A model generated the notes under the pieces. It did no database searches. It saw only the letters and a program-made list of their open reading frames with translations, and had not been told where the DNA came from. Of a stretch of DNA of 51,657 bases, positions 22,085 to 39,197 are shown in pieces (the first letter of the stretch is position 1; the number at the start of each line of letters is the position of its first letter). Position numbers and translations under genes: made by a program. The DNA lies in IMG/VR virus record IMGVR_UViG_3300030331_000022, positions 1 through 51,657 of that record; one strand, given 5' to 3'. This DNA comes from a virus (taxonomy: Duplodnaviria > Caudoviricetes).

Positions 22085-22502
22085 TCCCTAAAATACATTT
22101 TACTACAATATTGTAACAATTGTAACAATTTGTGATACACATTCTGTATGGAAACCACTATATATGTAATGTGGTTAACAGTCAATTTTACTGATCTGTG
22201 TAGATGTACATACACATATAACGCCTACCCCCCGTATGGCCCCTGCCTACCTGCTGACGTGTGCTTACCTAGTCGCATATCAGGCATCATGCTTGCAGGT
22301 GAACAGGCATAATGCAGACACATCCACCACGCATGAGAAAACCTCAACAATTTCAATAGCATATCAACTACCGACAACTGTTATGCAATCAGTTGCCATG
22401 CAATAGCATGAAAAAAAGGCTAGGATTTTCAGCAAGATAGTGTGTTGCAATAGCCGATTACAAAATACCCTACCCCCTATGGGGGTGGTGGCTGATTGAA
22501 CC

Positions 22503-22516
22503 GTCCAACATTGGAC
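22503..22516. repeat. Palindromic 14-mer, copy 1 (inverted orientation)
   Basis: GTCCAACATTGGAC is the reverse complement of GTCCAATGTTGGAC. Confidence 0.8.
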
Positions 22517-22623
22517 AGCTTGAAAGCCTCACGAGTTTCGTGCACGAACTGCGGTATCGAAGATACCTGTAGTCACACGGGAAACGGCACGGGCAGAGGA
22601 TCACGTGAAGCTGAAATCACCTA

Positions 22624-22713
22624 CTCTATCTCTCCATGTTACAGATAGTTTTCTATCTCTCCCTTTAGGGTGAGAGAGATATAAAACTCTCTTATGTAAC
22701 ATTAGAGATAGAG
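22624..22713 (+). promoter_or_regulatory. Long imperfect hairpin upstream of the first early gene
   Basis: CTCTATCTCT..ATGTTACA..AGTTTT.TATCTCTC pairs with GAGAGATA.AAAACT..TGTAACAT.AGAGATAGAG. Confidence 0.65.
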
Positions 22714-22727
22714 AAAGGGGCCACCAA

Positions 22728-23300
22728 ATGGCAAAATCAACAGCAAAACCACAAGTTGAAGGAACTTCAATCAATGCCGACATCAAAGAGGGCAAAGCCC
22801 TTGGGTCAATCTGGAGACAGACCAACAGTCTGAAACAGACCATCAAGGCCAATGGCTTCGACACACGGCTTGGAAAGCTGATGCAGAAGTTGAAAGCTGC
22901 ATCTTCGATGGATAATGGTCAAATATCCCGTCAAGTATTGACGACTCATGGCATCCATTGCATTGATCGTAGAAGACGATCTGAGGCTTTGTGGTTCGTT
23001 GAAAACGAAGTTGAGGTTCGTGAGTTTATTGCTAAAGCAAAATACAAAGGTTCCTCTCTTACAGCTTTACAAGCTGCAATGCGTAAAGCTGCCAAAGGCA
23101 GTGAAGATCAACCTGCTAAAGCAGAACCGTCCAATGTTGGACAGTCTGAACCTACCGAGCAGCCAAAGGCTGAACGTCCTAAGATCACCCACACTGTAAT
23201 GGTGAATACCATTCTGGCTCAGACCAAGCTCAACAACCTTGATCTTGAAAAGATCATTGAGGATCTTATGGCTGCTATTCCTGCAAAGGCAGCAGCATGA
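22728..23300 (+). CDS. First early protein, hypothetical (Ala/Lys-rich)
   Basis: 190 aa, RBS AAAGGGG; contains palindrome copy 2. Confidence 0.8.
   Translation: MAKSTAKPQVEGTSINADIKEGKALGSIWRQTNSLKQTIKANGFDTRLGKLMQKLKAASSMDNGQISRQVLTTHGIHCIDRRRRSEALWFVENEVEVREFIAKAKYKGSSLTALQAAMRKAAKGSEDQPAKAEPSNVGQSEPTEQPKAERPKITHTVMVNTILAQTKLNNLDLEKIIEDLMAAIPAKAAA
23129..23142. repeat. Palindromic 14-mer, copy 2
   Basis: GTCCAATGTTGGAC, preceded by AACC. Confidence 0.8.
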
Positions 23301-23530
23301 TCCACCGTCACACACATCAAACCAGTGTTAGGTATCTTATACCTAGCACTAAACGTGACCTTGCACAGTGGCAGCTTGATGCTGCTACTGACCAATTCTA
23401 TGAATTGGCTACACAGGAAGCAAACCGTCCAATGTTGGACACTTTAAACGAAATCACCAGATCGCCTGAGGAAATGCGTAGACGATCACCTACATTAATC
23501 CATGACAGTGGATGGAAGGATGTAACATGA
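23297..23530 (+). CDS. Hypothetical early protein
   Basis: 77 aa, ATGA overlaps at both ends. Confidence 0.65.
   Translation: MIHRHTHQTSVRYLIPSTKRDLAQWQLDAATDQFYELATQEANRPMLDTLNEITRSPEEMRRRSPTLIHDSGWKDVT
23427..23440. repeat. Palindromic 14-mer, copy 3
   Basis: GTCCAATGTTGGAC, preceded by AACC. Confidence 0.8.
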
Positions 23531-23658
23531 CTAGACGTGAGATCAAACGTATGAACCGTAACCGAGCTATAGGCTGGTTCTTTTTAGGTGTAGGTTGGAC
23601 TGCCTTTGCCATCTTATTAGCCTCAATGCCGATGATTTACGAATTAATTGTCTTATAG
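23527..23658 (+). CDS. Small single-TM membrane protein, 43 aa (not in ORF track)
   Basis: MTRREIKRMNRNRAIGWFFLGVGWTAFAILLASMPMIYELIVL; ATGA overlap, RBS GAAGGA. Confidence 0.6.
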   Translation: MTRREIKRMNRNRAIGWFFLGVGWTAFAILLASMPMIYELIVL

Positions 23659-23697
23659 TTATATAACACTTGACTATTTATGAAAGTGTTATATAAC
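23658..23697 (+). promoter_or_regulatory. Perfect 14-bp inverted repeat overlapping a sigma70-like promoter
   Basis: GTTATATAACACTT-N12-AAGTGTTATATAAC, containing TTGACT-N16-TATAAC. Confidence 0.6.
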
Positions 23698-23727
23698 ATA
23701 TATAGACATTAACAAAGGAACTTGTAT

Positions 23728-24414
23728 ATGACTTACCAAGTACATACCACAATCAAATCTAATAATCGTAAGGTTGGCAAGATACCTGTGACCACCACAA
23801 GTGCAGCTACCTGCCCTGATGCTTGCCCCTTCAACAATGCAAACGAAGGTGGCTGCTATGCAAATGGTGGGCCACTTGCTATGCATTGGGCCAAGGTAAC
23901 ACGTGGTGAACGTGGTGATGGTTGGCATACTTTTATTGCCAAGGTTACTACCTTCAAGGACGGCCAGTTGTGGCGTCACAATCAAGCAGGTGATCTGGCA
24001 GGTGATGGCAAACGTCTAGATGCCAAAGCAAACGAGCAGCTTGCTGATGCCAACACTGGCAAACGTGGCTTCACCTATACTCACTATCCTGTATTGACGG
24101 ACAAGCATAATGCAAAGGTAGTCAAACGGATGAATGAAAAAGGTTTTGTGGTCAATCTGTCAGCCAACAATGTTAAACATGCAGATGCATTATATGACTT
24201 AGGCATTGGGCCTGTAGCAACTGTGTTACCAGAAACACAAACCACCAATACCACTACACCTAAAGGTCGTAAGGTAATTGTTTGCCCTGCCACAGTCAAA
24301 GACGATGTGTCATGTGCAACATGTCAACTATGTGCTAGGAAACGTGATGCAATCATTGGCTTCCCTGCACATGGATCAAGTAAACGCAAAGCTGATAAGG
24401 TAGCAGCAGCATGA
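23728..24414 (+). CDS. Cys-rich early protein (Gp88-like / radical-SAM-like fold)
   Basis: CPDAC...GGCYA, LWRHNQAGD, FTYTH and CPA...SCATCQLC motifs; ATG at 23728 with RBS AAGGA. Confidence 0.6.
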   Translation: MTYQVHTTIKSNNRKVGKIPVTTTSAATCPDACPFNNANEGGCYANGGPLAMHWAKVTRGERGDGWHTFIAKVTTFKDGQLWRHNQAGDLAGDGKRLDAKANEQLADANTGKRGFTYTHYPVLTDKHNAKVVKRMNEKGFVVNLSANNVKHADALYDLGIGPVATVLPETQTTNTTTPKGRKVIVCPATVKDDVSCATCQLCARKRDAIIGFPAHGSSKRKADKVAAA

Positions 24415-24566
24415 AACAAACTGTAACATATCGTAATCCTGTGGCTAAAGCCATGCTACAGGAACGCAAGTCGCCACAGGTCGTGCCACCCAAAAAGGGA
24501 GGTAAGGCTAAACGTAACCGCAAACAGGAGAAATACAATGCGATACGAGATGAAGAATTTCGTTAA
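24411..24566 (+). CDS. Small basic protein with an ArfA-like motif, 51 aa (not in ORF track)
   Basis: MKQTVTYRNPVAKAMLQERKSPQVVPPKKGGKAKRNRKQEKYNAIRDEEFR; ATGA overlap. Confidence 0.55.
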   Translation: MKQTVTYRNPVAKAMLQERKSPQVVPPKKGGKAKRNRKQEKYNAIRDEEFR

Positions 24567-24681
24567 GTTTACTAAACGAAAAGTGTCCAATGTTGGACAA
24601 AAACCTAAACGTGATGATTGGAAACGTGAACGTAAGATCGCACGTCAAACTAAAATCAACCTTCGTAAATCAGTAGCATAA
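24550..24681 (+). CDS. Small basic protein, 43 aa (not in ORF track)
   Basis: MKNFVKFTKRKVSNVGQKPKRDDWKRERKIARQTKINLRKSVA; fills the gap and contains palindrome copy 4. Confidence 0.5.
   Translation: MKNFVKFTKRKVSNVGQKPKRDDWKRERKIARQTKINLRKSVA
24585..24598. repeat. Palindromic 14-mer, copy 4
   Basis: TGTCCAATGTTGGACA. Confidence 0.8.
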
Positions 24682-24695
24682 AAGGAGCTAATACA

Positions 24696-25034
24696 ATGAC
24701 AAACTCAAACGAATACGCACCCAGAGTAAAAGCAGCACATCCAGAATTGTATGCAGAGCATACGTTTCACATGAAGAAAGCTGTATCTTACACATACAAT
24801 TATAGTATAATTGATGAAGTGCTTCTTGAGTGTTGGGACGATATGACAATAGCAGAGATAGCACTAGCTACGAACGAATATCCTAATCGTATCAAGTATC
24901 GTGTGCAAGTTTTACAAACTCTTGGCATGATTAAGAACAAACTTAATATGGAACGTGCTGACCTAAAACGGCAACGTAAAGAGGCCGTTACATGGCTCAA
25001 AGATATTGACACTAAGCTGGCTAAGTGTTCGTAA
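24696..25034 (+). CDS. Hypothetical protein, possible HTH
   Basis: MTIAEIALATNEYPNRIKYRV is helix-turn-helix-like; RBS AAGGAG. Confidence 0.65.
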   Translation: MTNSNEYAPRVKAAHPELYAEHTFHMKKAVSYTYNYSIIDEVLLECWDDMTIAEIALATNEYPNRIKYRVQVLQTLGMIKNKLNMERADLKRQRKEAVTWLKDIDTKLAKCS

Positions 25035-25198
25035 TTGTATCTGCACTTGTTGCGTACCTGTTGGTGCTCCTTACTGTTGGTAGTGGGTCATCAGCAGGTT
25101 TTAATATAAAACAAATAGACGCAATGGAACTATGGATAATTTACTTTCAAGTAATTACCATATTACAAATACTGCGTTATCTGAAAGGTAAAATGTAA
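25025..25198 (+). CDS. Small membrane protein, 57 aa (not in ORF track)
   Basis: GTG start; MFVIVSALVAYLLVLLTVG...LWIIYFQVITILQILRYLKGKM, two hydrophobic segments; TAATG-coupled to the next ORF. Confidence 0.5.
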   Translation: MFVIVSALVAYLLVLLTVGSGSSAGFNIKQIDAMELWIIYFQVITILQILRYLKGKM

Positions 25199-25362
25199 TG
25201 CATGGAATGAATATGAATAATGAGGTTTGTTGTATCGATTGCGGAGAAACAGGTTTAGTTTTTGAGGGTCAGAATGAATATGAACCTGATCCAGTTACAG
25301 GTGATCCGAGGTGTTTTGCCTGTGACATAAAAGCTAACCCAGAAAAATATAGGAATTTGTAA
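25198..25362 (+). CDS. Small zinc-finger protein, 54 aa (not in ORF track)
   Basis: CIDC...CFAC pair; fills the gap up to the next gene. Confidence 0.55.
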   Translation: MHGMNMNNEVCCIDCGETGLVFEGQNEYEPDPVTGDPRCFACDIKANPEKYRNL

Positions 25363-25363
25363 A

Positions 25364-25735
25364 ATGAAAGTAGAGGTATACTTTAACCTACACAAACACT
25401 TGTTCTCTGTTCGTTCATGTAAAACAGGTAGGGTAATTGAACATACTACACATGTTCATTTGGACAGTCCTGTGTTTATAGTACGTCAATCAGGCCGTAA
25501 ACGTGTGTTACGTGAAGGTAAAAAGAATGTTCATGCTTTTGTAAGGGGCTATAGAAATCCTTATTTGGATTGGGCTTTACCTGACGGTTATCCTGTAGGA
25601 TATAACCCATACAAGTTTGATAGTTTTGTAAACAAACATACGCATGATCCTGTGCATTTTGCAAGTAAAGCAGCAATGCTTGTGTTGCCAAACAATAAAC
25701 CTGTAATAAGAGTAAAACAAGGAGTCGATATATGA
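25364..25735 (+). CDS. Conserved hypothetical phage protein
   Basis: VEVYFNLHK..FSV...GRKRVLREGKKNVHAFVRG...YNPYK motif. Confidence 0.8.
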   Translation: MKVEVYFNLHKHLFSVRSCKTGRVIEHTTHVHLDSPVFIVRQSGRKRVLREGKKNVHAFVRGYRNPYLDWALPDGYPVGYNPYKFDSFVNKHTHDPVHFASKAAMLVLPNNKPVIRVKQGVDI

Positions 25736-25968
25736 CGATTAAATCGTACGAAATTGTCCTACAGATTGATGGTGTGGATAGTAGGATCATGTTAGATGAT
25801 ACCTTTCCATCCATTGTCGATTGGATAAGTGCTTGCAATATGGCAGTCCTGATGGCAAAGCACGTACACCCAAGCAAAGAGGTAGAGTTTATCTCTTGCT
25901 CGGAATACATTGATGAACAATATGCAGACTATGATTACATAGCCCCTGCCTCATTCACAATACATTAA
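25732..25968 (+). CDS. Hypothetical protein
   Basis: 78 aa, RBS AGGAG, ATGA overlap. Confidence 0.65.
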   Translation: MTIKSYEIVLQIDGVDSRIMLDDTFPSIVDWISACNMAVLMAKHVHPSKEVEFISCSEYIDEQYADYDYIAPASFTIH

Positions 25969-25979
25969 GGAGAATAACT

Positions 25980-26342
25980 ATGGAAGCTAAGATAAAACTG
26001 ACTAAAACCATGCTTGATAAAAGCATTATTGATGCCAACAAAACTGTGCAAAAGTTTTTGCTAGGAGATTTTGGAATGGATTATAATGATCAGTTCTTTG
26101 TTGATCGCAATAAATTTATTGTAACTGGTGAATACACTGATGGCACAGAAGCCAAGGTTACATTCTATCGTACTGGCACACGTGGAGACAAACGTATTAG
26201 CATACAAAAGTTAAAACAGTATGCTGATGCAGGTGATGAGATACGTCTGTCATCTGACAGTGAAGACGTTCTAGGTGGTGATGGGCTGCGGATTTTTATT
26301 CAAGTACACAGACCACTAGAGGATGCTGAAGATGCTGCTTAA
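25980..26342 (+). CDS. Hypothetical protein
   Basis: 120 aa, RBS AAGGAG. Confidence 0.7.
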   Translation: MEAKIKLTKTMLDKSIIDANKTVQKFLLGDFGMDYNDQFFVDRNKFIVTGEYTDGTEAKVTFYRTGTRGDKRISIQKLKQYADAGDEIRLSSDSEDVLGGDGLRIFIQVHRPLEDAEDAA

Positions 26343-26727
26343 TACAGTGCTAATGTGTCTTGCACTTAATGTGTATCACGAAACACGAGGTCAGCCTATG
26401 GCTGAAGGGTATGCAGTGTCTCATGTGGTGTTGAATCGTGTCAAACATGATCGTTGGCCTAATGATGTATGCTCTGTTGTAAAACAAGGCTATAAAAAGG
26501 GCAGTAAAAAGTGCCAGTTTAGTTGGTATTGTGACGGTAAACCTGACACACCTTACGAAAAAAGGGCTTGGGTATTGTCTCAGTTGATAGCACATGATGT
26601 GCTTGAAGGGACTGTGGTTGATAACACAAACGGTGCTACCCACTACCATGCACACTATGTCAATCCTTGGTGGGCAAAAAAGTTAACTAAAACTGTGTCA
26701 CTAAAGACACACATATACTATAAATAG
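26323..26727 (+). CDS. Cell-wall hydrolase (SleB / Hydrolase_2 family)
   Basis: CLALNVYHETRG, VVLNRV, CQFSW and GATHYHA..V.P.W motifs. Confidence 0.88.
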   Translation: MLKMLLNTVLMCLALNVYHETRGQPMAEGYAVSHVVLNRVKHDRWPNDVCSVVKQGYKKGSKKCQFSWYCDGKPDTPYEKRAWVLSQLIAHDVLEGTVVDNTNGATHYHAHYVNPWWAKKLTKTVSLKTHIYYK

Positions 26728-26810
26728 CTTATCGTTACTAGTATAGGGATCATAGGTGTGATACAACAGGTTATCAGTTGCCTAACTAAAATGAAAAAAA
26801 GGAGAATAAT

Positions 26811-27656
26811 ATGCCATTTGATTTTACAAACTTTGAAGTACCAGAAAACTTAAACTTTCCTGTGGAGTTTGAACCCACTAAAGTAAGTGACAAAAAGTAT
26901 GTCATCAATGCCGACACTGGTAAATACCTTGGTATTGTCGGCAAAGGTTTTACGTGTGCATCACACGGTGATTTTTATCGTCGTGTCTACGACACAATCA
27001 CAGAGAACCTTTTGTCAACAGAGATTGAGAATGCACAGTTTACGTGGCGGTCTGCCCGTAACAATGCATGGTCTATGCTAGACATTACACTGCCCGACAT
27101 GCAGGTTGAGATTAGCACCGACAAGCATACAACTACGTTGGGTAATAGGATCATATCTTTGCATGGTATTGACGGTTCATGCAGCAATCAAGCATTCTTT
27201 GGTGCCATAGATTTCTTTTGCACCAATGGGCAGATATCTGGTGACTATGACAAGATCCGTAAGAAAAACACTTCCAACTTTACATTAGATGGTTTCATTC
27301 AGGAATTGCAACGTGCACGAACTGATTTCTACACAGAAACAGCCAAGATGCAAGTGTGGGCGCAAACTTCCACAAAGTATGTAAACATACAGTCTTTGCT
27401 TGAGGAGATGATATCCTCTAAACGTAAAGCAGAAAAAATGTTCAGCCTATACTGTGCAGAGGCAAGCACACGTGGTCACAATAAGTGGGCATTGTATTCT
27501 GCCTTTACCAACTACGCCAGCTATGCTGATGAACGTAACGGATTCAACTTGCGTAACACTGGCAACGACACACGTGCTATCAGCATGTTTAGCCGTGAGC
27601 AAGAGGTCAGCAAGTGGGTCAGTGACAGACGGTTCATAGAACTGGAAGCTGCTTAA
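26811..27656 (+). CDS. DUF932/DUF945-like phage protein
   Basis: YLGIVG..F, HGIDGS, FFCTNG and WALYSAFTNY motifs. Confidence 0.7.
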   Translation: MPFDFTNFEVPENLNFPVEFEPTKVSDKKYVINADTGKYLGIVGKGFTCASHGDFYRRVYDTITENLLSTEIENAQFTWRSARNNAWSMLDITLPDMQVEISTDKHTTTLGNRIISLHGIDGSCSNQAFFGAIDFFCTNGQISGDYDKIRKKNTSNFTLDGFIQELQRARTDFYTETAKMQVWAQTSTKYVNIQSLLEEMISSKRKAEKMFSLYCAEASTRGHNKWALYSAFTNYASYADERNGFNLRNTGNDTRAISMFSREQEVSKWVSDRRFIELEAA

Positions 27657-28780
27657 TGCCAAAGCTGCCACGTTATGTACAGGAACGAGTGTCACCTTCT
27701 GGTGGCATCTCGTATCGTTTTAATCCACCACAGATACTAGTGGATGAAGGTGTAGTAAAAAGAGAGTCTTACGGGTCTGACTTAAAGCAGGTTCGTAAGA
27801 TCGTCAAGCAACACAATGAAAACATTGACAAATGGCGTGATGAACAATCTGTTACACTTAACATGAATAAGGTCACAGATCTAATCAACTATTACTATCA
27901 GTCTAATGATTTCAATATGTTACGTGACACAACTAAAGTAGATTACCGATACTTCCTGACCATCTTGCACCAGACTATGGGCTGGCGTAAGTATGACAAG
28001 ATTACACCTAAGATTGCCAAGCAAGCCTATGAAGATTGGGTTAGACGTGGCATTAGCTTTGCTAATCATGCAGCTACTTGTGCTAGTAGAGTGTACAACT
28101 ATGCAATAATGATGGAGTATGCTACGCAGAATCCTTGGGCTAATATCAAACGCAAGTCCAGCAAACAACGTAAGGTTACGTGGTCACACGGTGAGATCAT
28201 CAAGTTCCTTGACATGGCCTACACAGACTTTGAATACAGGAACATAGGACTAATAGTACAGATGGCCTACGAGTGGTGTCAGAGACTAGGAGACATGCGT
28301 AATTTACGGTGGGATAACATAGACTTTACCTATGGTAAATTAGAACTAGAGCAAAGTAAACGCAGGGCAGAGGTAAGTCTACCAATATCTGACAACCTGC
28401 TGCACATGTTGAAAGAGCAACATAAAGACTTTGGGTTCCAAGAATATGTGGCTCCGCATCCTAGACCCATGAATGGAGTGTATAGTCCGTATGCTATGGA
28501 ACGACTATCTAAGGTAGGTAGAAGGGTCATGCGACTAGCTGGTTTACCAGAAGAACTAAGACTAATGGACATACGTAGAACAGGAGTAACACAAATGGAT
28601 AAGGAAGGTGTGCCGATTAACCAGATCATGTCTGTTACAGGGCATAGCCACATGGCCTCTGTAAAGCCATACCTAAAACATTCTTACGATAGTGCAAATA
28701 GTGCCTTGACAATGCGTAATGTATCTGTATCCTTGAGTGAAACGAACAACATAGAAAGTGATACATATGAATATAAGTAA
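27656..28780 (+). CDS. Tyrosine recombinase / integrase
   Basis: QRLGD (catalytic Arg), MDIRRTG (HxxR box), VTGH and catalytic Tyr (KPY); N-terminal arm-binding-like region. Confidence 0.85.
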   Translation: MPKLPRYVQERVSPSGGISYRFNPPQILVDEGVVKRESYGSDLKQVRKIVKQHNENIDKWRDEQSVTLNMNKVTDLINYYYQSNDFNMLRDTTKVDYRYFLTILHQTMGWRKYDKITPKIAKQAYEDWVRRGISFANHAATCASRVYNYAIMMEYATQNPWANIKRKSSKQRKVTWSHGEIIKFLDMAYTDFEYRNIGLIVQMAYEWCQRLGDMRNLRWDNIDFTYGKLELEQSKRRAEVSLPISDNLLHMLKEQHKDFGFQEYVAPHPRPMNGVYSPYAMERLSKVGRRVMRLAGLPEELRLMDIRRTGVTQMDKEGVPINQIMSVTGHSHMASVKPYLKHSYDSANSALTMRNVSVSLSETNNIESDTYEYK

Positions 28781-29555
28781 TATAATTAATGATATATCAC
28801 TTAGTAATGGTGAGACTAAACGCATGAACTGCCCTGAGTGTGATGGCTACAAGACGTTCACTATCACTAACAATATGGGATCATTGCTATGGAACTGTTA
28901 CAAGGCAGGGTGCTCTGTGTCTGGTGGTAAACGTGTGCACTTATCTGCCGATGATATACGTAACTCACTTGGCAGTGTTGCCAAAGAGACACACTCTGTT
29001 GGTTTTGAAAAACCTGAGTGGCTAGTCAAAGACTACAATGCTATTCGTCCATTCTGTAATGAGTGGAGTCTTGACCCACAACACTTAGGACTTCTTTATG
29101 ACGTGAAGGAACATCGTGTAGTGTTCCCTATTATGCAAGGGAATGTGATAGTTGATGCCACAGGTCGCAGTTTGTCTGGACGTTTACCTAAATGGAAACG
29201 ATACGGAAAAAGTCTATTGCCATACACTTGTGGATGTGGTACAACTGCCGTAGTTGTTGAGGACTGTGTAAGTGCAGCTATTGTTGGTGCGACAGGCGAA
29301 CTTGGATGCTCTAGTGGTGATGTATATGTCGGGGTAGCAGTGTTGGGTACATCATTATCGGAGGGACACAAGCAATACTTATCACAGTTCTCAACAGCAG
29401 TGATTGCCTTAGACCCCGATGCACTACCAAAGACATTGGCGATTGCGAAAGAATTACGAGGACACGTAAAGCACATACGTGTATTGTATTTATTAGACGA
29501 TTTAAAATATAGAAACGAAACCGACATGATGAAACTAACAGAGCTAGGAGATTAA
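28767..29555 (+). CDS. DNA primase (Zn finger + TOPRIM)
   Basis: CPEC...WNCYKAGC, VVVED..SA and ALDPDA motifs; upstream of the helicase. Likely ATG at 28767. Confidence 0.85.
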   Translation: MNISNIINDISLSNGETKRMNCPECDGYKTFTITNNMGSLLWNCYKAGCSVSGGKRVHLSADDIRNSLGSVAKETHSVGFEKPEWLVKDYNAIRPFCNEWSLDPQHLGLLYDVKEHRVVFPIMQGNVIVDATGRSLSGRLPKWKRYGKSLLPYTCGCGTTAVVVEDCVSAAIVGATGELGCSSGDVYVGVAVLGTSLSEGHKQYLSQFSTAVIALDPDALPKTLAIAKELRGHVKHIRVLYLLDDLKYRNETDMMKLTELGD

Positions 29556-29556
29556 T

Positions 29557-30780
29557 ATGGAATTATCACTTGTACGCAGTCTGATGGACAAGTCATTCTA
29601 CGATGAGCATCGTGGGGCAAAGTGTCCAGACAGATTGTTTAGCAAAGATGTACGTAAGATCAAGCAGTCTATTGATGCTGCTATGAGCAGGTACGAACGT
29701 ACAGTAACGCCAGATGAGATAGAGGCATTGTTTATGGCAAACAATCCTACCCTTACAACGGCACAGAAACAGGCATATAGCCATCTATTTACGAAAATAA
29801 AACGTGAGTCACCTATGGGTGGAGATGTAGCACAAGAGGTGCTATCCAAACTATTTCAACAAGTTGTGGGAGAAGATATTGCAAATCTTGGATTTGATTA
29901 TGTGAACGGTGACAAGTCTAGTCTTGAGCCACTACGTAACCTCTTGGAACAGTATGGAGATGATTTTACACCCAATCTAAAAGTAGAGTGGGAAGACATA
30001 AGTATTGATACTATACTTGCAATGACAGATCTTGAGTCGCAGTGGACATTTAACATACCATCTCTTACACGCAAACTAGAGGGTATAAATGCTGGTCATT
30101 TGATTGAGGTAGGTGCAAGGCCAAACACTGGCAAGACATCCTTTCATGCCTCTCTTGTGGCCTCTCCTGATGGGTTTGCATGGCAAGGGGCAAAGTGTGT
30201 AGTGCTATGCAACGAAGAGGGTTACTATAGGGTTGCACATAGGTACATCACTGCTGCTACTGGTATGGACAAATACCAGATTAGTAGAAACAAAGAGGTG
30301 GCTATGCGTGTGTTTGATCAAATACGTAAGAATATCATGTTCAAAGATGCGACTGGACGGGACATGAACTGGGTAGAATCTGTGTGTAAATCCTACAAGC
30401 CTGATATTGTAATCTTAGATATGGGTGATAAGTTTGCTAGGACTAGTGGATTTGCTAGACCTGATGAAGCACTCAAAGCTAATGCTGTACATGCTAGACA
30501 AATTGCTAAACAACATAACTGTGCTCTGTTTTATATGTCTCAACTATCCGCAGATGCAGAGGGTAAAGTTGTGCTTAATCAAGCTATGATGGAGGGCAGT
30601 CGTACAGGTAAGGCAGCAGAGGCTGACCTTATGATTATGATATCTAAGAATCCTACTGTGCAAGATCAAGCAGAGGAAGACATAGAACGACATATAAATA
30701 TTGTTAAAAACAAACTGTCTGGATGGCATGGCCTGATACATGTAAATCTAGACTACCATACTGCGAGGTATTTAGTATGA
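29557..30780 (+). CDS. Replicative SF4 (DnaB-like) helicase
   Basis: Walker A GARPNTGKT, CNEE, IVILD, SQL, EADL and IVKNK motifs. Confidence 0.9.
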   Translation: MELSLVRSLMDKSFYDEHRGAKCPDRLFSKDVRKIKQSIDAAMSRYERTVTPDEIEALFMANNPTLTTAQKQAYSHLFTKIKRESPMGGDVAQEVLSKLFQQVVGEDIANLGFDYVNGDKSSLEPLRNLLEQYGDDFTPNLKVEWEDISIDTILAMTDLESQWTFNIPSLTRKLEGINAGHLIEVGARPNTGKTSFHASLVASPDGFAWQGAKCVVLCNEEGYYRVAHRYITAATGMDKYQISRNKEVAMRVFDQIRKNIMFKDATGRDMNWVESVCKSYKPDIVILDMGDKFARTSGFARPDEALKANAVHARQIAKQHNCALFYMSQLSADAEGKVVLNQAMMEGSRTGKAAEADLMIMISKNPTVQDQAEEDIERHINIVKNKLSGWHGLIHVNLDYHTARYLV

Positions 30781-31520
30781 TTGATGTGAAATATATAAAT
30801 CATATGGGTACTGACATTACAGTTGTAAATGCTGCACGTGTTAGCTTTGGAAAAAAATCAGATTTTGTGTGCACTGACATGATAATAGGCAAGTACGAGA
30901 TGAAAGAGGCTGATACAAAGCTGATCAAATATCTTGCCAAACACAAACATATGTCACCCTTTGGACATTGTTTTGCTACCTTTCATGTCAAGGCTCCTAT
31001 ATTTGTGGCACGTCAGCTAGTCAAGCATAAATTCCTACGTTGGAACGAGATCAGCCGTAGGTATGTAGACAGTGAGCCTGAGTTTTATATCCCTGAGTTT
31101 CGTAAAGCAGTTAAAAATAAAAAACAGGGATCAGGGGGAGTCATAAACTCTGAAAACTTACGTATTAGATTTGAAAGAAATATGGTAAGTGCAAAGCATA
31201 AGTACGAATATCTATTACATCAAAACGTATGTCCAGAACAAGCACGTATGGTGTTGCCACAAAATACTATGACTGAGTGGTACTGGTCAGGCAGTCTTGA
31301 TGCCTTTGCTGATATGTGTAATCTGCGTTGTGCTTCTGATACACAATACGAAACACGGTTAGTCGCAACAAAGGTTAGTGACAGTATGAAAGTATTATTT
31401 CCTGTGTCTTGGGATGCTTTAGTAAAAGTTAATGGACATCAAGCAGAAAAAATGACTGATGTTGCAGTATTTTCAGAAGACATATGGCAGGATGGTGATG
31501 GCGGGGAGTTATTTACATGA
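30777..31520 (+). CDS. thyX: Flavin-dependent thymidylate synthase
   Basis: VNAARVSF, HMSPFGH, APIFVARQLVKH, NEISRRY and EQARMVLP motifs; start revised to the ATG at 30777 (ATGA overlap). Confidence 0.92.
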   Translation: MIDVKYINHMGTDITVVNAARVSFGKKSDFVCTDMIIGKYEMKEADTKLIKYLAKHKHMSPFGHCFATFHVKAPIFVARQLVKHKFLRWNEISRRYVDSEPEFYIPEFRKAVKNKKQGSGGVINSENLRIRFERNMVSAKHKYEYLLHQNVCPEQARMVLPQNTMTEWYWSGSLDAFADMCNLRCASDTQYETRLVATKVSDSMKVLFPVSWDALVKVNGHQAEKMTDVAVFSEDIWQDGDGGELFT

Positions 31521-31948
31521 TACATAAATTTATGAATAATATACCAGAGTTTTGCCTTAGTCACTGGCTACTCAGGATACCTTTAGCAATTGTGTTTATA
31601 CAACAGGGATTTTCTAAGTTCCCTATAACACTTGAGGATGCAAGTTCATTTGGACTACCTTTAGTTGTATGGTCATTTGCTGCGTACGGAGAACTCGGTG
31701 CAGGTATAGGTTTAATAGTGAGTGGTATTATAGGACTAAGTATTTGGGACTTTTGGATTAGAGATATGTTTGCATTTTGGGCAGACTTACTGACACGTTT
31801 CTGTGGTATTACCATTTGTTGTGTTATGACTGGTGTTATATGGGTGGGTGAACCAGATAGTTTAACTGACGTATTACTATATGATAACTTACATGTTTTA
31901 TTGTGGGTTGGTGGTTTGTTCTTTGCCCTAAGAGGAATGAGAGCATGA
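31517..31948 (+). CDS. DoxX-family membrane protein
   Basis: LLRIPLAIVFIQQG.SK...AYGELGAGIGL, four TM segments. Confidence 0.75.
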   Translation: MIHKFMNNIPEFCLSHWLLRIPLAIVFIQQGFSKFPITLEDASSFGLPLVVWSFAAYGELGAGIGLIVSGIIGLSIWDFWIRDMFAFWADLLTRFCGITICCVMTGVIWVGEPDSLTDVLLYDNLHVLLWVGGLFFALRGMRA

Positions 31949-32103
31949 GAAGAACTAGTATAGTAGAGTGTCCGTGGTGCAAAGAGGCATTTGACTGGAG
32001 AGAAGACAGAGAATGCCCACATTGTAAAGACAAATATCAATGTGTAAGTTGTGGTGCACCCACCAAAAATACATGGTGTGGTTTTTGTTTAGAGGAAGAG
32101 TAA
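31945..32103 (+). CDS. Small multi-CxxC zinc-finger protein
   Basis: CPWC..CPHC..CVSC..CGFC; ATG at 31945 overlaps the DoxX stop. Confidence 0.65.
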
Positions 32104-32104
32104 A

Positions 32105-33127
32105 TTGAGACTAGAGAATGAAATAAAGTTAGACTTTAAAGATGTCTTAATAAGACCAAAGAGAAGCACTCTTGGTAGCCGTAAACAAGTTGAATTAACA
32201 AGAGATTTTAAGTTTAAAAATTCTCTTGGGATGTATCGTGGCATACCTGTAATGGCTGCTAACATGGATGGTGTTGGTACTTTTGAAATGGCAAAGGCTC
32301 TAAAAGATCTAGGTCTGTTTACTTGTTTAGTTAAGACCTACACATCTGAGGAGATCATTAACTTTTTTAAAAGTGATCAACGTTTATATCAAAGTGTGGC
32401 AGTAAGTATTGGTATTACTGATGATGATCTTATAAAGTGGCATGAGGTTTACTCTCATGAGCACAGTGTAAAATATGTTTGCATTGATGTTGCTAACGGC
32501 TACAGTGAAAACTTTGTAGATTTTGTAAAAGAGTTTAGAGGTAGATATCCTGAGATAGTTATTATAGCAGGTAACGTAGCCACTGGTGAAATGACAGAGG
32601 AACTAATACTAAGTGGTGCTGACATAGTTAAAGTTGGTATTGGTCCTGGGTCTGTTTGTACAACGAGAATAAAAACTGGTGTTGGTTATCCACAACTGTC
32701 AGCCATAATAGAATGTGCTGATGCTGCTCATGGTCTTGGTGGCTTAGTTATTGCTGATGGTGGTTGTACCTGTGCTGGTGATGTTGCAAAGGCTTTTGGT
32801 GCAGGTGCAGACTTTGTAATGCTAGGTGGTATGTTTGCTGGTCACGATGAGGGAGGTGTCGAAATAGTAGATGGCAAGGTTCAGTTCTACGGCATGAGTT
32901 CTAAAGCTGCCAATGACAAACACTTTGGTGGCTTAAAAGAATATAGAACATCTGAGGGTAGGGATGTACAGATACCACATAAAGGAGAGATAACTAATAC
33001 TGTCCAAGAAATACTTGGTGGCCTAAGATCATCCTGTACCTATGTTGGAGCTAGGAACTTAAAAAATTTAAGTAAATGCACAACTTTCGTTAGGTGCACA
33101 CAAACATATAATTCTGTTTTTTGTTAA
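32105..33127 (+). CDS. guaC: GMP reductase (type 1)
   Basis: [59 protein letters not shown] and EYR.SEG motifs; no CBS domains. Confidence 0.92.
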
Positions 33128-33140
33128 GGGAGTTTGCTGA

Positions 33141-33383
33141 ATGATAGACAGACCTGAAGGTTATAAAGAGATAGTAATACGAACAAGTAACCCAAGAGTA
33201 TCTTGTAGTGGGGAGAACAATGACCACCCACTAGTTTACTATGATGTACCAAGAGATGGAACATATGTCGTTTGTGGCTACTGTGATATTAAATTTGTTT
33301 ATGAACCAGATAATGCAGACCACTGGACAGATAAGACTGAAAAGATTGCAAGGATTTGTTATAGTAGAGGATTTTTTGTATGA
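33141..33383 (+). CDS. zf-CHCC zinc-finger protein (NDUFS6-like)
   Basis: RVSCSGENNDHPLVY...VVCGYC..KF gives a C-H-C-C ligand pattern. Confidence 0.75.
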   Translation: MIDRPEGYKEIVIRTSNPRVSCSGENNDHPLVYYDVPRDGTYVVCGYCDIKFVYEPDNADHWTDKTEKIARICYSRGFFV

Positions 33384-33568
33384 CACCTAGAGAAGAAGCA
33401 CAGATAGAAGCAGAGAAAACTTACGTAGCTTTTTTAGAAAAAAGCAAACGTGTGTTGATAGTTAGTGTGTTGGTGCTTTTGCTTTTAGCTTTTTGCAGTG
33501 ACTTTGACACACCAACAAATTATAACGGTGAGGTTTATGCCCCCAAAAACATAGGAGAAGATAGATGA
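33380..33568 (+). CDS. Small membrane-anchored protein
   Basis: Single TM segment VLIVSVLVLLLLAFC. Confidence 0.65.
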   Translation: MTPREEAQIEAEKTYVAFLEKSKRVLIVSVLVLLLLAFCSDFDTPTNYNGEVYAPKNIGEDR

Positions 33569-33669
33569 ATCATAATTTTTATATTAGAGAACTGTCTGAA
33601 AGAGTTTTTGAACTTGAAAAAAAAGTAGCTATACTAGAAGAAAAACTCAAGGAGACTAAGAATGTTTAG
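33565..33669 (+). CDS. 34-aa coiled-coil peptide (not in ORF track)
   Basis: MNHNFYIRELSERVFELEKKVAILEEKLKETKNV; RBS GGAG, overlaps both neighbours. Confidence 0.5.
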   Translation: MNHNFYIRELSERVFELEKKVAILEEKLKETKNV

Positions 33670-33997
33670 AGCAATACTAGCTGCCTGTATGATAGCAGGT
33701 GGAGCACAAGCAGGTGAGTGGCAAACAAAACCTGTAATATGTGGAGGTGAGGAAGAAACATTTAGCACATTAGCCTTGATGGAGCAACGCCTTGTATATA
33801 AGGCAATGCAGTATACAACAGTCAAAGATCCAGATGATTTAATAGATGGACTATCTGATAATCCTGTGTTATTACATATGGCTATCTACATGAACTTAGA
33901 TACAGGCACGTACACAGTATTGGAATATCATGACTTGTACAAACAGTTTTGCCTGATTAGTTATGGCAATCAAGGGATGTTTGTAAATGGTGATTAA
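33662..33997 (+). CDS. Hypothetical exported protein (signal peptide)
   Basis: MFRAILAACMIAGGAQA signal; KPVICG...GTYTVLEY...CLISYG. Confidence 0.7.
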   Translation: MFRAILAACMIAGGAQAGEWQTKPVICGGEEETFSTLALMEQRLVYKAMQYTTVKDPDDLIDGLSDNPVLLHMAIYMNLDTGTYTVLEYHDLYKQFCLISYGNQGMFVNGD

Positions 33998-34208
33998 ACC
34001 AATGACTCAAGAAGAACGTCAACGTGCAAAGGAGAAACAATATATGAATAGTAATATGAGCACAGAGATTGCGTTGTATAATGCAATGAAAAAACATGAT
34101 TTAACTTTAGCAGAGGCAGTACAAGCAATGGAGATATTTGCAAATGACAAAGAGTTTCAAAATGATCTTGACAGATTCTATGGAAATGAGGTATTCATAG
34201 AAGAATGA
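33987..34208 (+). CDS. Hypothetical protein
   Basis: 73 aa, coupled to the polymerase start. Confidence 0.65.
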   Translation: MVIKPMTQEERQRAKEKQYMNSNMSTEIALYNAMKKHDLTLAEAVQAMEIFANDKEFQNDLDRFYGNEVFIEE

Positions 34209-36256: not shown

Positions 36257-36266
36257 TATAACTATA
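36234..36266 (+). promoter_or_regulatory. Sigma70 promoter for the SSB/nuclease/RNR genes
   Basis: TTGACA-N17-TATAAC(TATA), upstream of RBS AAGGAG. Confidence 0.65.
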
Positions 36267-36297
36267 CATCTGTAACAAAAGAAAAGGAGATACATAT

Positions 36298-37194
36298 ATG
36301 ACAATGGTAGAAACATTTAACACATCAGATTACAACTCAATGGCTGCTACACTTGGGATGGCAGCAGACAATAAACCGTCCCGTGATAGTTCCACACTTG
36401 CACGATTGCGTATCAATCACTCACCTATCATGGGTGAGCAAGAGGTAAATGGTAAAAAGGTAAAGCTAGAGGTTGTAGCTGGTGGCACGTATAAGTTGGA
36501 GATTCCTGATGGGCCAACTTACTACGCAGAATCTGCCACTATACGTCCATACATGCAAAGGTTTATGTATAAACGATTTATCATGGGTAGTGATTCAGCA
36601 CCTAATCGTTATGTTAAAACGATTATGGCTGATAACCTAAACATTGATCTAAAAGACAATGATGGTGGTTTTAACTGTGGTAAACCTGCAGGATGGATAG
36701 AGGACTTCAAGGCTTTGCCTCAAAAAACACAAGACTTGATCCGACAGATTAAACGTGTTCGTGTAATGTTTGGCACAGTAACACTTGTTAATCCTGTAGA
36801 CTTGAATGGCAACCCTGTCAACCAAGAGTTAGACAATACCCCATTCATATGGGAGATTGAAAACCGTGATGCTTTTAAGATGGCTGGAGGTATCTTTGCC
36901 AAGCTAGGCAAGATGCGTAGGCTACCACCGATGCACACAATCAAGTCAGCCACACAAGAACGTAGCTTACCTAATGGTAACAGTTTCTTCTTACCTGATT
37001 TGGAGTTGGATATCACTAACTCGTTAGACTTAGATGCAGGTGCACAAGAAACACTAACAAACTTCTTGGCTTGGATTGCAAACTATAACGAGTACATATC
37101 TAACGCATGGGATGAAAACTCAGGTAAACACGAGGACATTCCATTCGATGATGTGGACGATATCATTGATGCAGATATGGAAGAATTTGCGTGA
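36298..37194 (+). CDS. Putative single-stranded DNA-binding / annealing protein
   Basis: Between polymerase and exonuclease; acidic C-terminal tail ending DADMEEFA; strong RBS. Confidence 0.6.
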   Translation: MTMVETFNTSDYNSMAATLGMAADNKPSRDSSTLARLRINHSPIMGEQEVNGKKVKLEVVAGGTYKLEIPDGPTYYAESATIRPYMQRFMYKRFIMGSDSAPNRYVKTIMADNLNIDLKDNDGGFNCGKPAGWIEDFKALPQKTQDLIRQIKRVRVMFGTVTLVNPVDLNGNPVNQELDNTPFIWEIENRDAFKMAGGIFAKLGKMRRLPPMHTIKSATQERSLPNGNSFFLPDLELDITNSLDLDAGAQETLTNFLAWIANYNEYISNAWDENSGKHEDIPFDDVDDIIDADMEEFA

Positions 37195-38045: not shown

Positions 38046-38047
38046 TA

Positions 38048-38500: not shown

Positions 38501-38501
38501 C

Positions 38502-39076: not shown

Positions 39077-39197
39077 AGAGGATTACCCAATACCTGTAGA
39101 TGGTATGGTGGAGGAAGATGTGGATGAGACTATACGTAACCTCATTCACGATGTAGACGGTGTTACCGTCAAGTCTGTAAAAGTAATAGTGGAGTAA
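39039..39197 (+). CDS. Small acidic protein, 52 aa (not in ORF track)
   Basis: MRVKIFLTIELDEEDYPIPVDGMVEEDVDETIRNLIHDVDGVTVKSVKVIVE; RBS GAGG. Confidence 0.6.
   Translation: MRVKIFLTIELDEEDYPIPVDGMVEEDVDETIRNLIHDVDGVTVKSVKVIVE

Follow-up and report, generated by a model that had tools for sequence, protein, structure and literature searches.

This locus raises the question of what maintains one and the same 14-bp palindrome both inside genes and in non-coding DNA at the head of a phage early region. The searched sequence, hereafter the window, is the whole 51,657-nt record of an HMO-2011-type marine podophage contig (94% complete according to CheckV). The word GTCCAA-NN-TTGGAC is present in it as exact copies at 22503, 23129, 23427 and 24585, referred to as sites A–D, and nowhere else in the 51.7 kb. 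The exact 14-mer lies on the plus strand in the last three, and on the minus strand at 22503, where the plus strand reads GTCCAACATTGGAC. Sites A–C are preceded by AACC and site D by AAGT, and all four are followed by A. The sole further match at up to two mismatches is a one-mismatch copy at 37361 (-). In total, 9 strand-matches at ≤ 2 mismatches were observed, compared to a mean of 0.37 and a maximum of 3 in 100 dinucleotide shuffles (0/100 reaching 9), and a reversed-pattern control on the whole record gave 0 matches. Positions, flanks and reading frames of the copies were all reproduced as given in the preliminary description of this DNA, and the number of copies, which it had judged to be far beyond chance, is borne out by the shuffles. 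Coordinates of all relevant features are collected in Table 1.

Table 1. Palindromic sites and associated features of the early region, in window coordinates.
Feature	Coordinates	Strand	Description
Site A, CA centre	22503..22516		divergent non-coding control region, 212 nt upstream of gp01 start
gp01	22728..23300 (codons to 23297)	+	first gene of rightward early operon, 190 aa; candidate DNA-binding protein
Candidate specificity helix S-L-T-A-L-Q-A-A-M-R-K-A-A	23055..23093	+	gp01 codons 110-122
Site B	23129..23142		within gp01; encodes S135-N-V-G138 of disordered linker
Small ORF, 77 aa	23297..23530	+	hosts site C; homologues in 12 sources
Site C	23427..23440		within small ORF 23297-23530; read as R-P-M-L-D
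Small basic ORF, 47 aa	24538..24681	+	hosts site D; homologues in 28 sources
Site D	24585..24598		within small basic ORF 24538-24681; read as V-S-N-V-G-Q
o112, winged-helix with long C-terminal helix	24696..25034	+	directly after site D; candidate rival binder

The core could be refined to GTCCAA-YR-TTGGAC. Centre dinucleotides in 117 distinct related sites are TG (66), CG (28), CA (17) and GG (6). Since the centre is variable, the consensus is perfectly palindromic, with CG at its centre, and the copy at 22503, initially regarded as inverted, merely has CA in place of TG. The same word is read in three reading frames (E-P-S-N-V-G-Q in ORF 22728-23300, K-V-S-N-V-G-Q in ORF 24538-24681 and R-P-M-L-D-T in ORF 23297-23530) as well as being present in non-coding DNA, and it is the sole conserved element of the otherwise variable gp01 linker, in which S135, V137 and G138 are invariant in 21 homologues. 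The constraint is therefore on nucleic acid and not on protein, as proposed at the outset.

Sites at orthologous positions were found in Roseobacter phages CRP-345 and CRP-1, at ~ 70–75% nucleotide identity, and the positions are also kept in more than 100 related IMG/VR loci. The non-coding site A has orthologues in CRP-345 (record position 54485), CRP-1 (53808) and HMO-2011 (53879), and site D in CRP-345 (2132), CRP-1 (2228) and most loci, while site C is located in the same ORF in L174, L186, L188, L200, L201 and L210. Genomes carry 4–8 copies, all in the first 2–5 kb of the rightward early operon together with the divergent control region; in the whole records G003 to G008 and HMO-2011, the latter with 5 sites, the 4–8 copies span 2.4–5 kb at the head of this operon. 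The only outlier copies are in the integrase gene of G003 and G004 (with a GG/CC centre) and, among isolates, in the integrase of CRP-345 and CRP-1 and in a Cas4-like gene of CRP-345; they are degenerate in relatives. The clustered palindrome is present in relatives, and the window copies are not remnants of local duplication, two of the points on which the preliminary description had made its interpretation depend.

Arms of the palindrome are invariant within the early cluster. Counted as distinct contexts, there are 105 exact-arm copies, 5 copies with one mismatch (0 in the early cluster) and 30 with two mismatches, 21 of which represent the symmetric form GTCCGA..TCGGAC. A mismatch in a single arm was not found at any early-region site examined. 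In some genomes, the symmetric variant GTCCGA-NN-TCGGAC (G-type) takes the place of every GTCCAA copy (A-type). Among 124 sources, a count that includes overlapping pieces of some contigs, those with at least 3 copies number 98 for the A-type and 13 for the G-type; a further 6 A-type sources have fewer copies, and 7 lack the motif. Neither a mixed A/G genome (0/124) nor a third arm variant was observed in this set. The 39 IMG/VR loci with a DUF7227 gene comprise 28 GTCCAA-type clusters, 4 of the GTCCGA type and 7 without either. The tree implies a minimum of 3 and a maximum of 7 changes of motif type. In the pair L181 and L182, 92–93% identical over 7.2–15.8 kb, all 5 sites differ, and the site differences are confined to arm positions 5 and 10, with 1/90 and 3/90 differences in the flanks of two of the five sites. 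A search for one-sided intermediates in IMG/VR gave single scattered matches only and no intermediate cluster.

Symmetry extends beyond the core. The flanks are pseudo-symmetric, with A at position -3 in 83% of sites on one side and 73% on the other, and a pyrimidine at -1 in 80% and 85%, respectively; the upstream flank is rich in A and the downstream one in T. In HMO-2011, a CTGT-centre copy occupies the same promoter-to-RBS context as ACAG-centre copies, indicating that core orientation is irrelevant. In all these respects the sites behave like targets of a two-fold symmetric, sequence-specific factor, in agreement with the dimeric protein envisaged earlier.

We have also addressed the placement of sites with regard to promoters and genes. 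The initial view that they are not positioned like promoter operators holds in the window, where no sigma-70-like promoter was detected beside any of the four sites, no promoter-like hexamers overlap them, and the divergent region has a single copy (22503). It does not hold in relatives. There, 142 of 362 distinct sites sit 8–9 nt before a ribosome-binding site with a start codon (spacing of 8 or 9 nt in 98/142), many of them directly downstream of a promoter-like block, while 220 have no start codon nearby. Most sites in relatives have a promoter-like block or a small hairpin before them and the next ribosome-binding site after them; sigma-70-like promoters are found closely upstream of many copies, and in some cases a terminator-like hairpin comes before the copy and the ribosome-binding site directly after it.

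Near-identical modules precede different genes, and gene content between sites differs among genomes, in which the p77 ORF, a 48-aa ORF and o112 alternatives come and go. These features would fit recombination joints, where hairpin or promoter block, palindrome, 8–9 nt and ribosome-binding site form a cassette boundary that shuffles small early genes. Known cassettes of this kind are the PeSL (promoter-early stem-loop) cassettes of T4-type phages, composed of a terminator-like stem-loop and a promoter, which are not known to have a dedicated sequence-specific binder. The phage modules resemble them as repeated regulatory units between small, variable early genes, but differ in that the conserved core is a strict palindrome that is also intragenic. 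Joints leave unexplained the coding-embedded sites B, C and D, the strict invariance of 12 nt, the all-or-none point-substitution switch in otherwise identical flanks, and the co-variation with gp01 presented below. We consider this explanation very unlikely, and early-gene shuffling is more likely a by-product of the repeated modules. The tight spacing to the ribosome-binding site at ~ 40% of sites, superfluous for a pure DNA operator, may reflect shared descent of modules.

The same spacing before a Shine-Dalgarno sequence and start codon is also what an RNA hairpin in early transcripts might display, be it as a protein-bound operator of translation, in transcript processing or stability, or in antitermination of the nut/boxB kind. 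The palindrome could form a 5-bp stem with a 4-nt loop, folding at -6.4 to -7.3 kcal/mol at three of four plus-strand window sites; values are -10.7 for site B with flanks included and -11.7 kcal/mol for site A on the minus strand. The change from A5/T10 to G5/C10 preserves the base pair, small basic ORFs are found nearby, and in HMO-2011 motif positions 6 and 9 need not pair, all of which can be accommodated by this model. Nevertheless, plus-strand folding z-scores are modest (-1.5 to -3.0), and no copy of the G.U type expected as an intermediate was found among about 126 sites, nor does an intermediate cluster exist in IMG/VR. Selection on pure structure would let copies vary, yet they are identical within each genome. 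The core works in either orientation in the same context and has pseudo-symmetric flanks, the majority of sites lack a nearby start codon, three of four window sites are intragenic, and the co-varying protein has a helical, KorB-like predicted fold of DNA-binding type. An RNA element is accordingly regarded as quite unlikely.

Weak bidirectional intrinsic terminators or pause sites, without any sequence-specific reader, are the explanation to which we give least credence. Minus-strand readings of sites C and D are the only ones to pass a consensus terminator scan, and the A-rich and T-rich flanks point in the same direction. However, the stem has only 5 bp and is weak (-6.4 to -7.3 kcal/mol), copies B and D, which are coding, have no T-run on the plus strand and thus no U-tract in the transcript, and terminators need no shared sequence, whereas arms here are invariant and switch together. 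Hardly more probable are N4-like hairpin promoters, extruded from supercoiled DNA and used by a phage, possibly virion-borne, RNA polymerase. Promoters of phage RNA polymerases are phage-specific and change in concert, as do the sites, which in addition are clustered where the early region begins and in some cases stand between a terminator-like hairpin and the ribosome-binding site; large uncharacterised proteins encoded at 41964-45797, 47725-50991 and 2-2749 might provide the enzyme. On the other hand, no RNA polymerase was detected by PHROGs, Pfam, or a PDB sequence search of the 1278-aa protein, many copies in relatives have a sigma-70-like promoter closely upstream, the core functions in both orientations in one context and with different centres, and a terminator-like hairpin is located leftward of site A.

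A candidate for the symmetric factor is gp01. Its AlphaFold2 model (pLDDT 72.6) consists of a six-helix N-domain, a disordered linker (pLDDT < 50) and a two-helix C-domain. The protein has no sequence match in Pfam, PHROG or PDB and no detected similarity in sequence to a named family, a profile search against PDB gave 0 hits, and Foldseek with the model found nothing at E ≤ 0.001. The family is large and without annotation: clustering at 90% identity gives at least 2,436 clusters with E ≤ 0.001, and clustering at 50% gives 144 representatives. The best structural match in a VIA-wide search was the DNA-binding domain of KorB on operator DNA (1r71_A; Z 5.3, rmsd 3.5 over 88 residues), followed by Spo0J (1vz0_A, Z 4.0) and KorB (8qa8_A, Z 3.5); these are weak matches, as helical models often score Z 7–14 in VIA by chance. 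The Pfam KorB domain matched 1 of 21 family members (E 0.099), and no ParB-type Pfam domain was found in the 21 at E up to 10, although a diverged domain could escape such a scan. The modelled N-domain is all-helical.

Distribution of gp01 follows that of the sites. The gp01 profile matches 38 of 54 sources. The 16 without a match comprise 7 loci that lack the motif, 5 that have it but begin downstream of the gene, and 4 isolates covered over 7 kb each only. In whole records, HMO-2011 has gp01 (E 9e-18) along with its sites, while CRP-603, HTVC033P and CRP-3 have neither.

Co-variation was assessed on 76 distinct gp01 proteins, 67 A-type and 9 G-type. A first strict column test disclosed no discriminating residue besides the motif-encoded one. 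Position 112 is T in 66/67 A-type and 0/9 G-type proteins (S in 8), position 119 is R in 62/67 versus 0/9, and position 116 is K in 12/67 versus 9/9; T112, A116 and R119 are on one face of the helix 111-122. In nearest-sister contrasts, positions 116 and 119 changed in 8/8 and 112 in 7/8. When these columns were left out of tree construction, 148 and 141 came 2nd and 3rd among 183 columns, just behind the motif-encoded one. The score of type-discriminating columns is 0.93–0.99 in gp01, compared to 0.76 at best in six neighbouring proteins. The pattern extends to the best 120 database homologues, where SD[VI]G proteins carry S/K/N in 12/12 and SN[VI]G proteins T112 in 106/107. Among representatives at 50% identity, T112 is found in 14/20 N-type and 0/10 D-type proteins (Fisher 0.0003, uncorrected for kinship), with S112 also in 3/20 N-type ones, while R119 (8/20 versus 1/10, p 0.2) is not discriminating at this deeper divergence. 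A conservative independent-pairs test has only 4 pairs on well-supported branches, so that its p values of 0.125–0.5 cannot reach 0.05; the direction across the 4 pairs is the same for R119 (3.3/4), K116 (3.5/4) and S112 (2.8/4). Judged from these sequence comparisons, gp01 and its sites most likely changed specificity together several times. The product of ORF 22728, named first in the preliminary description among proteins worth testing for binding, is hence the one whose residues co-vary with the site.

The co-varying codons are ~ 36–75 nt upstream of site B, and gp01 differences between L181 and L182 pile up in nt 331–450 (5, 13, 18 and 7 per 30-nt bin), compared to 0–1 per bin in nt 121–330. 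The helix and site B could therefore have been transferred in a single recombination tract, and the sites might be dsDNA targets of another dimeric protein, with gp01 hitch-hiking in the divergence hot-spot it shares with site B. Such a binder could be o112, a phage protein encoded beyond the region compared, or a regulator conserved in the hosts. The o112 model (AlphaFold2 pLDDT 74.8) matches DNA-binding domains of Lrp/AsnC, Fur, MarR and DeoR (Foldseek and VIA, Z 5–6.7), and its gene follows site D in most genomes. It is, however, missing from the motif-bearing sources L176, L180, L181, L193-L195, L209, G006 and G008, replaced by an unrelated 76-aa ORF in L176, L180 and L181, and its best discriminating column scores merely 0.67, with 3 G-type members. 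In ORF 24538-24681, an Asn/Asp residue tracks motif type. No other protein in the 15.8 kb common to G001 and G002 has a discriminating column across G-type genomes, which counts against this alternative. The CG-centred core flanked by AA/TT presumably resembles operators of LacI/GalR-type host regulators, but a host factor would need to change in step between 92%-identical phages and to serve phages of both Roseobacter and SAR116 hosts. We consider a binder other than gp01 unlikely.

The interpretation we favour, with a rough probability of 0.6, is that the palindromes are operator or roadblock sites in dsDNA for a gp01 homodimer that would shut down early transcription. Of the functions suggested for the sites earlier and here, among them genome entry, decoys, parS-type loading and recombinase accessory sites, the best fit is to a roadblock of transcription or an operator. 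The case for repression comes mostly from relatives, because no sigma-70-like promoter was found beside the window sites. In the proposed scheme, gp01 would be made first from the rightward operon, and would bind site A in the control region, site B in its own gene, and then sites along the first 2–5 kb. Bound gp01 would lower or block passage of host RNA polymerase on early genes, resulting in Cro-like shut-off and possibly, in these integrase-bearing phages, in immunity through a repressor with roadblocks of the stoperator kind. One face of helix 111-122 (T112, A116, R119) would read base pair 5/10 of the site, and repeated switching between A:T and G:C could produce lineages immune to their own type only. 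More tentatively, gp01 and its palindromes might constitute the immunity module of integrase-bearing HMO-2011-type phages, in which a repressor carrying an operator in its own linker would autoregulate by roadblock. Escape from superinfection immunity might have toggled its specificity three to seven times between two or more mutually blind alleles (A:T with T112/R119 and G:C with S112/K116), HMO-2011 itself representing a third form; this extension is doubtful.

Proposed repressor and sites can be compared with several known systems. In phage lambda, operators of Cro and CI (OR and OL) come as tandem triplets at two promoters, whose -35 and -10 elements they overlap. Like Cro, gp01 is encoded by the first rightward early gene next to a divergent control region and is proposed to be a small dimeric repressor; unlike in lambda, the control region has one site, and the others are 0.3–1.2 kb apart downstream and often intragenic. 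Specificity of KorB is set by residues outside its helix-turn-helix, a situation that the candidate specificity helix of gp01, located terminally in its domain, would match. The RK2 KorB protein, of the ParB-CTPase family, acts as a dimer on dispersed palindromic OB operators in global, partly long-range repression, as described in excerpts of PMC11790492. Multiple palindromic sites on one replicon, some of them intragenic, are common to both systems, and the best structural match of the gp01 N-domain, weak as it is (Z 5.3), is to KorB. Unlike KorB, gp01 is an all-helical protein of 190 aa in which no ParB/Srx CTP-binding N-domain was found, a ParA/IncC-type ATPase partner was not found among the 54 window ORFs searched with PHROGs and the 31 searched with Pfam, and no KorA-like partner was found in the window by either. 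The likeness implies no sliding-clamp behaviour for gp01.

Stoperators of Cluster A mycobacteriophages (L5 gp71, Bxb1) are, according to PMC6550527, asymmetric 13-bp sites oriented with transcription and present genome-wide in up to about 30 copies, mostly outside promoters, in short pre-gene gaps and elsewhere. Their consensus is lineage-specific and tracks the repressor; they are proposed to block elongation and set immunity specificity (PMC6550527). The phage sites described here share with stoperators the many copies of one short word, mostly away from promoters, in pre-gene gaps and elsewhere, and the joint divergence of site type and candidate regulator, for which the pair test is under-powered. 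They differ from them in being a 14-bp palindrome with pseudo-symmetric flanks, having both centre orientations in HMO-2011, and in being restricted to 4–8 copies within 2.4–5 kb, several intragenic and one in the gene of the candidate binder.

None of the four 14-mers was found in the literature searched, and the terms “promoter”, “RNA polymerase” and “palindrom” are absent from the term-searched text of a comparative paper on HMO-2011-type phages (PMC9038755). The pair proposed here is the first candidate regulator and operator for HMO-2011-type phages, with named residues and bases. Members of this group, with hosts in SAR116, Roseobacter and SAR11, rank among the most common phages of the sea. 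Switches like that between L181 and L182 offer a natural experiment on the joint change of a DNA-binding protein and its dispersed sites. Should the pair set immunity, natural populations of HMO-2011-type phages would be divided by it into immunity groups. Because site B is located inside gp01, each gp01 sequence reports its own operator type and, if the proposed recognition is true, a protein-DNA recognition code would be readable directly from metagenomes.

The window, a complete IMG/VR virus record of 51,657 nt (94% complete by CheckV), was grouped with the HMO-2011-type marine podophages by PHROG and Pfam scans and by blastn/tblastn comparison with isolates. Of the isolates, the Roseobacter phages CRP-345 and CRP-1 come closest, with a nucleotide identity of 70-75% for the early region and an identity of 76-78% for the DNA polymerase. 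PHROG, Pfam and PDB sequence searches with three very large proteins of the structural block returned no match, apart from weak EF-hand-like matches in the 1089-aa one. A search of genome contigs for prophages or hosts, with the DUF7227 protein as query, yielded one weak unrelated match only.

Features of the window and of the early protein gp01 (AF2, structure model)
Feature	Position	Description
Divergent non-coding region	~22380-22727	genes point away on both sides
Leftward block		small unknown genes, lysis, terminase, portal, capsid, tail; wraps past the contig ends
Rightward block	22728-41620	small early genes, integrase, primase, helicase, thymidylate synthase, DNA polymerase, ribonucleotide reductase
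Very large structural-block proteins	41964-45797 (-), 47725-50991 (-), 2-2749 (-)	three in number
GC-rich hairpin with T-run	22472-22486 (-)	reads as leftward terminator, ~15 nt from site A
Leader with second repeat system	22624-22715	between site A and the gp01 start
TCTATCTCTCC direct repeat, two copies	22625, 22652	in the leader
Inverted partners of TCTATCTCTCC	22674-22692, 22704-22715	in the leader
gp01	22728-23297	first rightward early gene, 190 aa
gp01 N-domain	residues 13-122	six helices (AF2)
gp01 linker	residues 124-149	disordered (AF2)
gp01 C-domain	residues 155-189	two helices (AF2)
Perfect 14-nt inverted repeat	23658-23671 / 23684-23697	upstream of the DUF7227 gene
DUF7227 protein	23722-24414	Cys-rich; Pfam E 3.3e-87
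o112	24696-25034	ORF just after site D
Integrase	27656-28780	within the rightward block

The palindrome GTCCAATGTTGGAC has three exact plus-strand copies, at 23129 (site B), 23427 (site C) and 24585 (site D), and one exact minus-strand copy, at 22503 (site A). These are the four copies reported in the preliminary description, whose account of flanks and reading frames also came out the same on re-check of the window. Allowing up to two mismatches added a single location, 37361-37374 (-), with one mismatch. Nine strand-matches were thus observed at this threshold, against a shuffle mean of 0.37, and none of 100 shuffles reached nine. The copy at 37361 belongs with others in CRP-345 (7079 and 14469) and CRP-1 (6868), all of which are near or exact motifs inside Cas4-like exonuclease and integrase genes. 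Since their orthologues vary (GGTC, GGGC, GGAC; TAGGAC), they resemble chance matches in coding sequence more than functional sites.

GTCCAA-NN-TTGGAC is found at orthologous places in CRP-345 and CRP-1, namely upstream of the first early gene, within that gene, about 20 nt ahead of the DUF7227 gene, and within a small basic ORF. An exact 14-mer scan of IMG/VR revealed clusters of up to nine copies per 6.5 kb. The DUF7227 protein was used to fetch 39 loci: GTCCAA-type clusters (A-type) occur in 28, GTCCGA..TCGGAC clusters (G-type) in four, and the seven without either are the more distant ones. Records that are whole or nearly so keep their copies within 2.4-5 kb at the start of the early operon. 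The exceptions outside this cluster are one copy in the integrase gene and, for CRP-345, a further one in the Cas4-like exonuclease gene, both with degenerate orthologues among relatives. The central dinucleotide varies over 117 distinct sites (TG 66, CG 28, CA 17, GG 6), and the consensus therefore reads as a perfect palindrome of 14 bp. In HMO-2011 the motif takes a third form, GTCCG-ACAG/CTGT-CGGAC, with five copies in a 3.3-kb stretch around the first early genes and none in the rest of the 55 kb. For CRP-603, HTVC033P and CRP-3, the initial 7 kb showed no recurrent palindromes or 9-12-mers. None of the four 14-mers appeared in the literature text searched, and the words "promoter", "RNA polymerase" and "palindrom" are absent from the searched passages of the comparative paper on HMO-2011-type phages (PMC9038755). 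The motif is a real, strongly selected cis-element.

The arms of the motif are almost invariant. Counted by distinct context, there are 105 exact-arm copies, five with one mismatch, none of them inside the early cluster, and 30 with two mismatches, 21 of these last carrying the symmetric pair of changes A5>G and T10>C. In a census of 124 sources, some of which are overlapping pieces of a single contig, 98 have at least three A-type copies, 13 at least three G-type copies, six fewer A-type copies, and seven none; neither a source of mixed type nor a third arm variant was encountered among them. The one-sided intermediate GTCCGATGTTGGAC gave scattered single matches in IMG/VR, each on a different contig, among the 80 of 118 stretches listed. 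The switch is illustrated by two related loci, L181 and L182, which are 92-93% identical across 7.2-15.8 kb. All five of their sites differ, with arm changes at positions 5 and 10 only, and at two of these sites the flanks differ by just 1/90 and 3/90 nucleotides. On a tree of 76 gp01 proteins motif type requires seven changes, at least three of which are forced by well-supported branches. Judged from the sequences, this pattern requires a sequence-specific reader that changes in step with its sites. Sites B and D share a reading frame (S-N-V-G-Q), and the A5>G switch turns Asn into Asp both in the gp01 linker (23133-23135) and in the small basic ORF (24589-24591).

We have also addressed the question of whether the motif is read as DNA or RNA. 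Its flanks are pseudo-symmetric: on the two sides, position -3 is A in 83% and 73% of sites, and position -1 is a pyrimidine in 80% and 85%. At site A, centre and flank signals of orientation conflict. In HMO-2011, copies with CTGT and ACAG centres share one context, consisting of a promoter-like block, the motif and a ribosome-binding site, which settles the core as orientation-free. The motif may have a role at the RNA level, as a Shine-Dalgarno sequence and start codon follow 142 of 362 distinct sites, at a spacing of 8 or 9 nt in 98 of the 142. We ascribe this tight spacing, however, to common inheritance of a module found ahead of various small genes. Furthermore, the RNA hairpin is modest (5-bp/4-nt, -6.4 to -7.3 kcal/mol at three of the four plus-strand sites), and no G.U-type intermediate copies were seen. 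Flank symmetry, free orientation, the modest hairpin and the lack of such intermediates together point to a protein of two-fold symmetry, bound to duplex DNA, as the probable reader.

The best candidate for this reader is gp01, which is present wherever the motif is present and the region is covered. Its profile matched in 38 of 54 sources, and the 16 misses comprise five truncated loci, the seven motif-less loci and four isolates of which just 7 kb were compared. In whole records, HMO-2011 has both gp01 (E 9e-18) and sites, and CRP-603, HTVC033P and CRP-3 have neither. The rival reader, o112, encoded next to site D, combines a winged-helix fold with a long C-terminal helix and gives VIA Z scores of 5-6.7 to Lrp/AsnC, Fur and MarR domains. 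It is missing from several motif-bearing genomes, and this lack of universality made it a rival rather than the preferred reader. A conserved, unrelated 76-aa ORF stands in its place in L176, L180 and L181. The most divergent ORF between the otherwise 92%-identical L181 and L182, p77 (L181 5648-5878 / L182 5609-5875), was ruled out as reader by its absence from the window and most genomes. It ends in a conserved REFL.SGITP.EWDATFG motif and is found in some genomes only.

Fetching 80 more loci with the gp01 profile gave the 76 distinct proteins mentioned, 67 from A-type and nine from G-type loci. Three residues on one face of helix 111-122 follow motif type. Position 112 is T in 66/67 A-type and 0/9 G-type proteins (S in eight), position 116 (A in the window) is K in 12/67 and 9/9, and position 119 is R in 62/67 and 0/9, respectively. 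In contrasts between nearest sisters, 116 and 119 changed in all eight cases and 112 in seven. On a tree built without these columns, column 148 (R119) ranks second and column 141 (T112) third of 183, after the motif-encoded Asn/Asp. Six neighbouring proteins offered no equally separating column (best 0.76, against 0.93-0.99 in gp01). This signal emerged only with more sequences and sister contrasts; a first strict test, demanding zero residue overlap between types, left only the motif-encoded Asn/Asp as discriminating in gp01. An independent-pairs test had only four pairs on supported branches, which puts significance out of reach, and gave 3.3/4 and 3.0/4 in the same direction and none in the opposite one (p 0.125-0.5).

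As site B lies inside gp01, the protein sequence reveals its own operator type. Among the best 120 database homologues, S112/K116/N119 accompany SD[VI]G in 12 of 12 proteins, and T112 accompanies SN[VI]G in 106 of 107. With representatives at 50% identity, T112 occurs in 14/20 N-type and 0/10 D-type proteins (Fisher 0.0003, uncorrected for kinship) and K116 in 3/20 and 6/10 (0.03); the difference for R119, 8/20 and 1/10, is not significant. Site B follows the co-varying codons at a distance of 36-75 nt, and gp01 differences between L181 and L182 concentrate in nt 331-450, which include the helix end, linker and site B, so a single recombination tract could carry helix and site together. The other four sites changed by point substitution and could not have been moved by one such tract.

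The AF2 model of gp01 (pLDDT 72.6) has three parts, and the sole conserved residues of the linker are the motif-encoded S-x-V-G. Searches of PHROGs, Pfam and PDB (phmmer and profile) found no significant sequence match, and Foldseek against PDB gave none at E <= 0.001. In an exhaustive VIA search the top structure was the operator-bound DNA-binding domain of KorB (1r71_A, Z 5.3, 88 residues aligned at rmsd 3.5); Spo0J, at Z 4.0, and KorB-CTP, at Z 3.5, came further down. These scores are weak by the tool's own calibration, so the KorB likeness serves as a lead only. No ParB-type N-domain was recognized in gp01, and no ParA partner was found in the window.

Other elements accompany the sites. 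The TCTATCTCTCC repeats may form a further set of operators, or give the leader a structure. The perfect inverted repeat ahead of the DUF7227 gene brackets a sigma-70-like -35 element (TTGACT-18-TAACAT), and the GAAAGTGTTATATAAC block, as at 23658-23699, recurs right upstream of motif copies in relatives. The stem of the terminator-like hairpin near site A covaries among relatives. In L174, L179, L187, L201, L202 and L176, many intergenic motif copies are preceded, at a distance of about 10 nt, by a small hairpin and TTAATT. The hairpins show compensatory stem changes, and between early genes they may act as weak terminators or stabilise RNA 3' ends. The DUF7227 protein is also present in 166 Pseudomonas phage records (PAK_P1-like) and in cyanophages, and the annotated first gene of the HMO-2011 record is DUF7227-like, not a gp01 homologue.

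Taken from the sequence comparisons, the motif set is most likely the operator array of gp01, an uncharacterised early protein. As the first product made, gp01 would bind, presumably as a dimer, the control-region site, the site in its own gene and those downstream, so that transcription of the early genes by host RNA polymerase would be lowered or blocked. Most downstream sites in relatives have a promoter-like block or a small covarying hairpin on one side and, on the other, the next ribosome-binding site. The proposed system resembles Cro in the position of the gene, KorB in its palindromic, dispersed operators (available text of PMC11790492), and the L5 stoperators in the proposed elongation block and the co-divergence with a repressor (available text of PMC6550527). 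According to the available text of PMC9038755, CRP-3, from a related subgroup, integrates. Given this and the integrase of HMO-2011-type phages, the repeated two-form switch would fit escape from superinfection immunity, and we speculate that such escape may be what it reflects.
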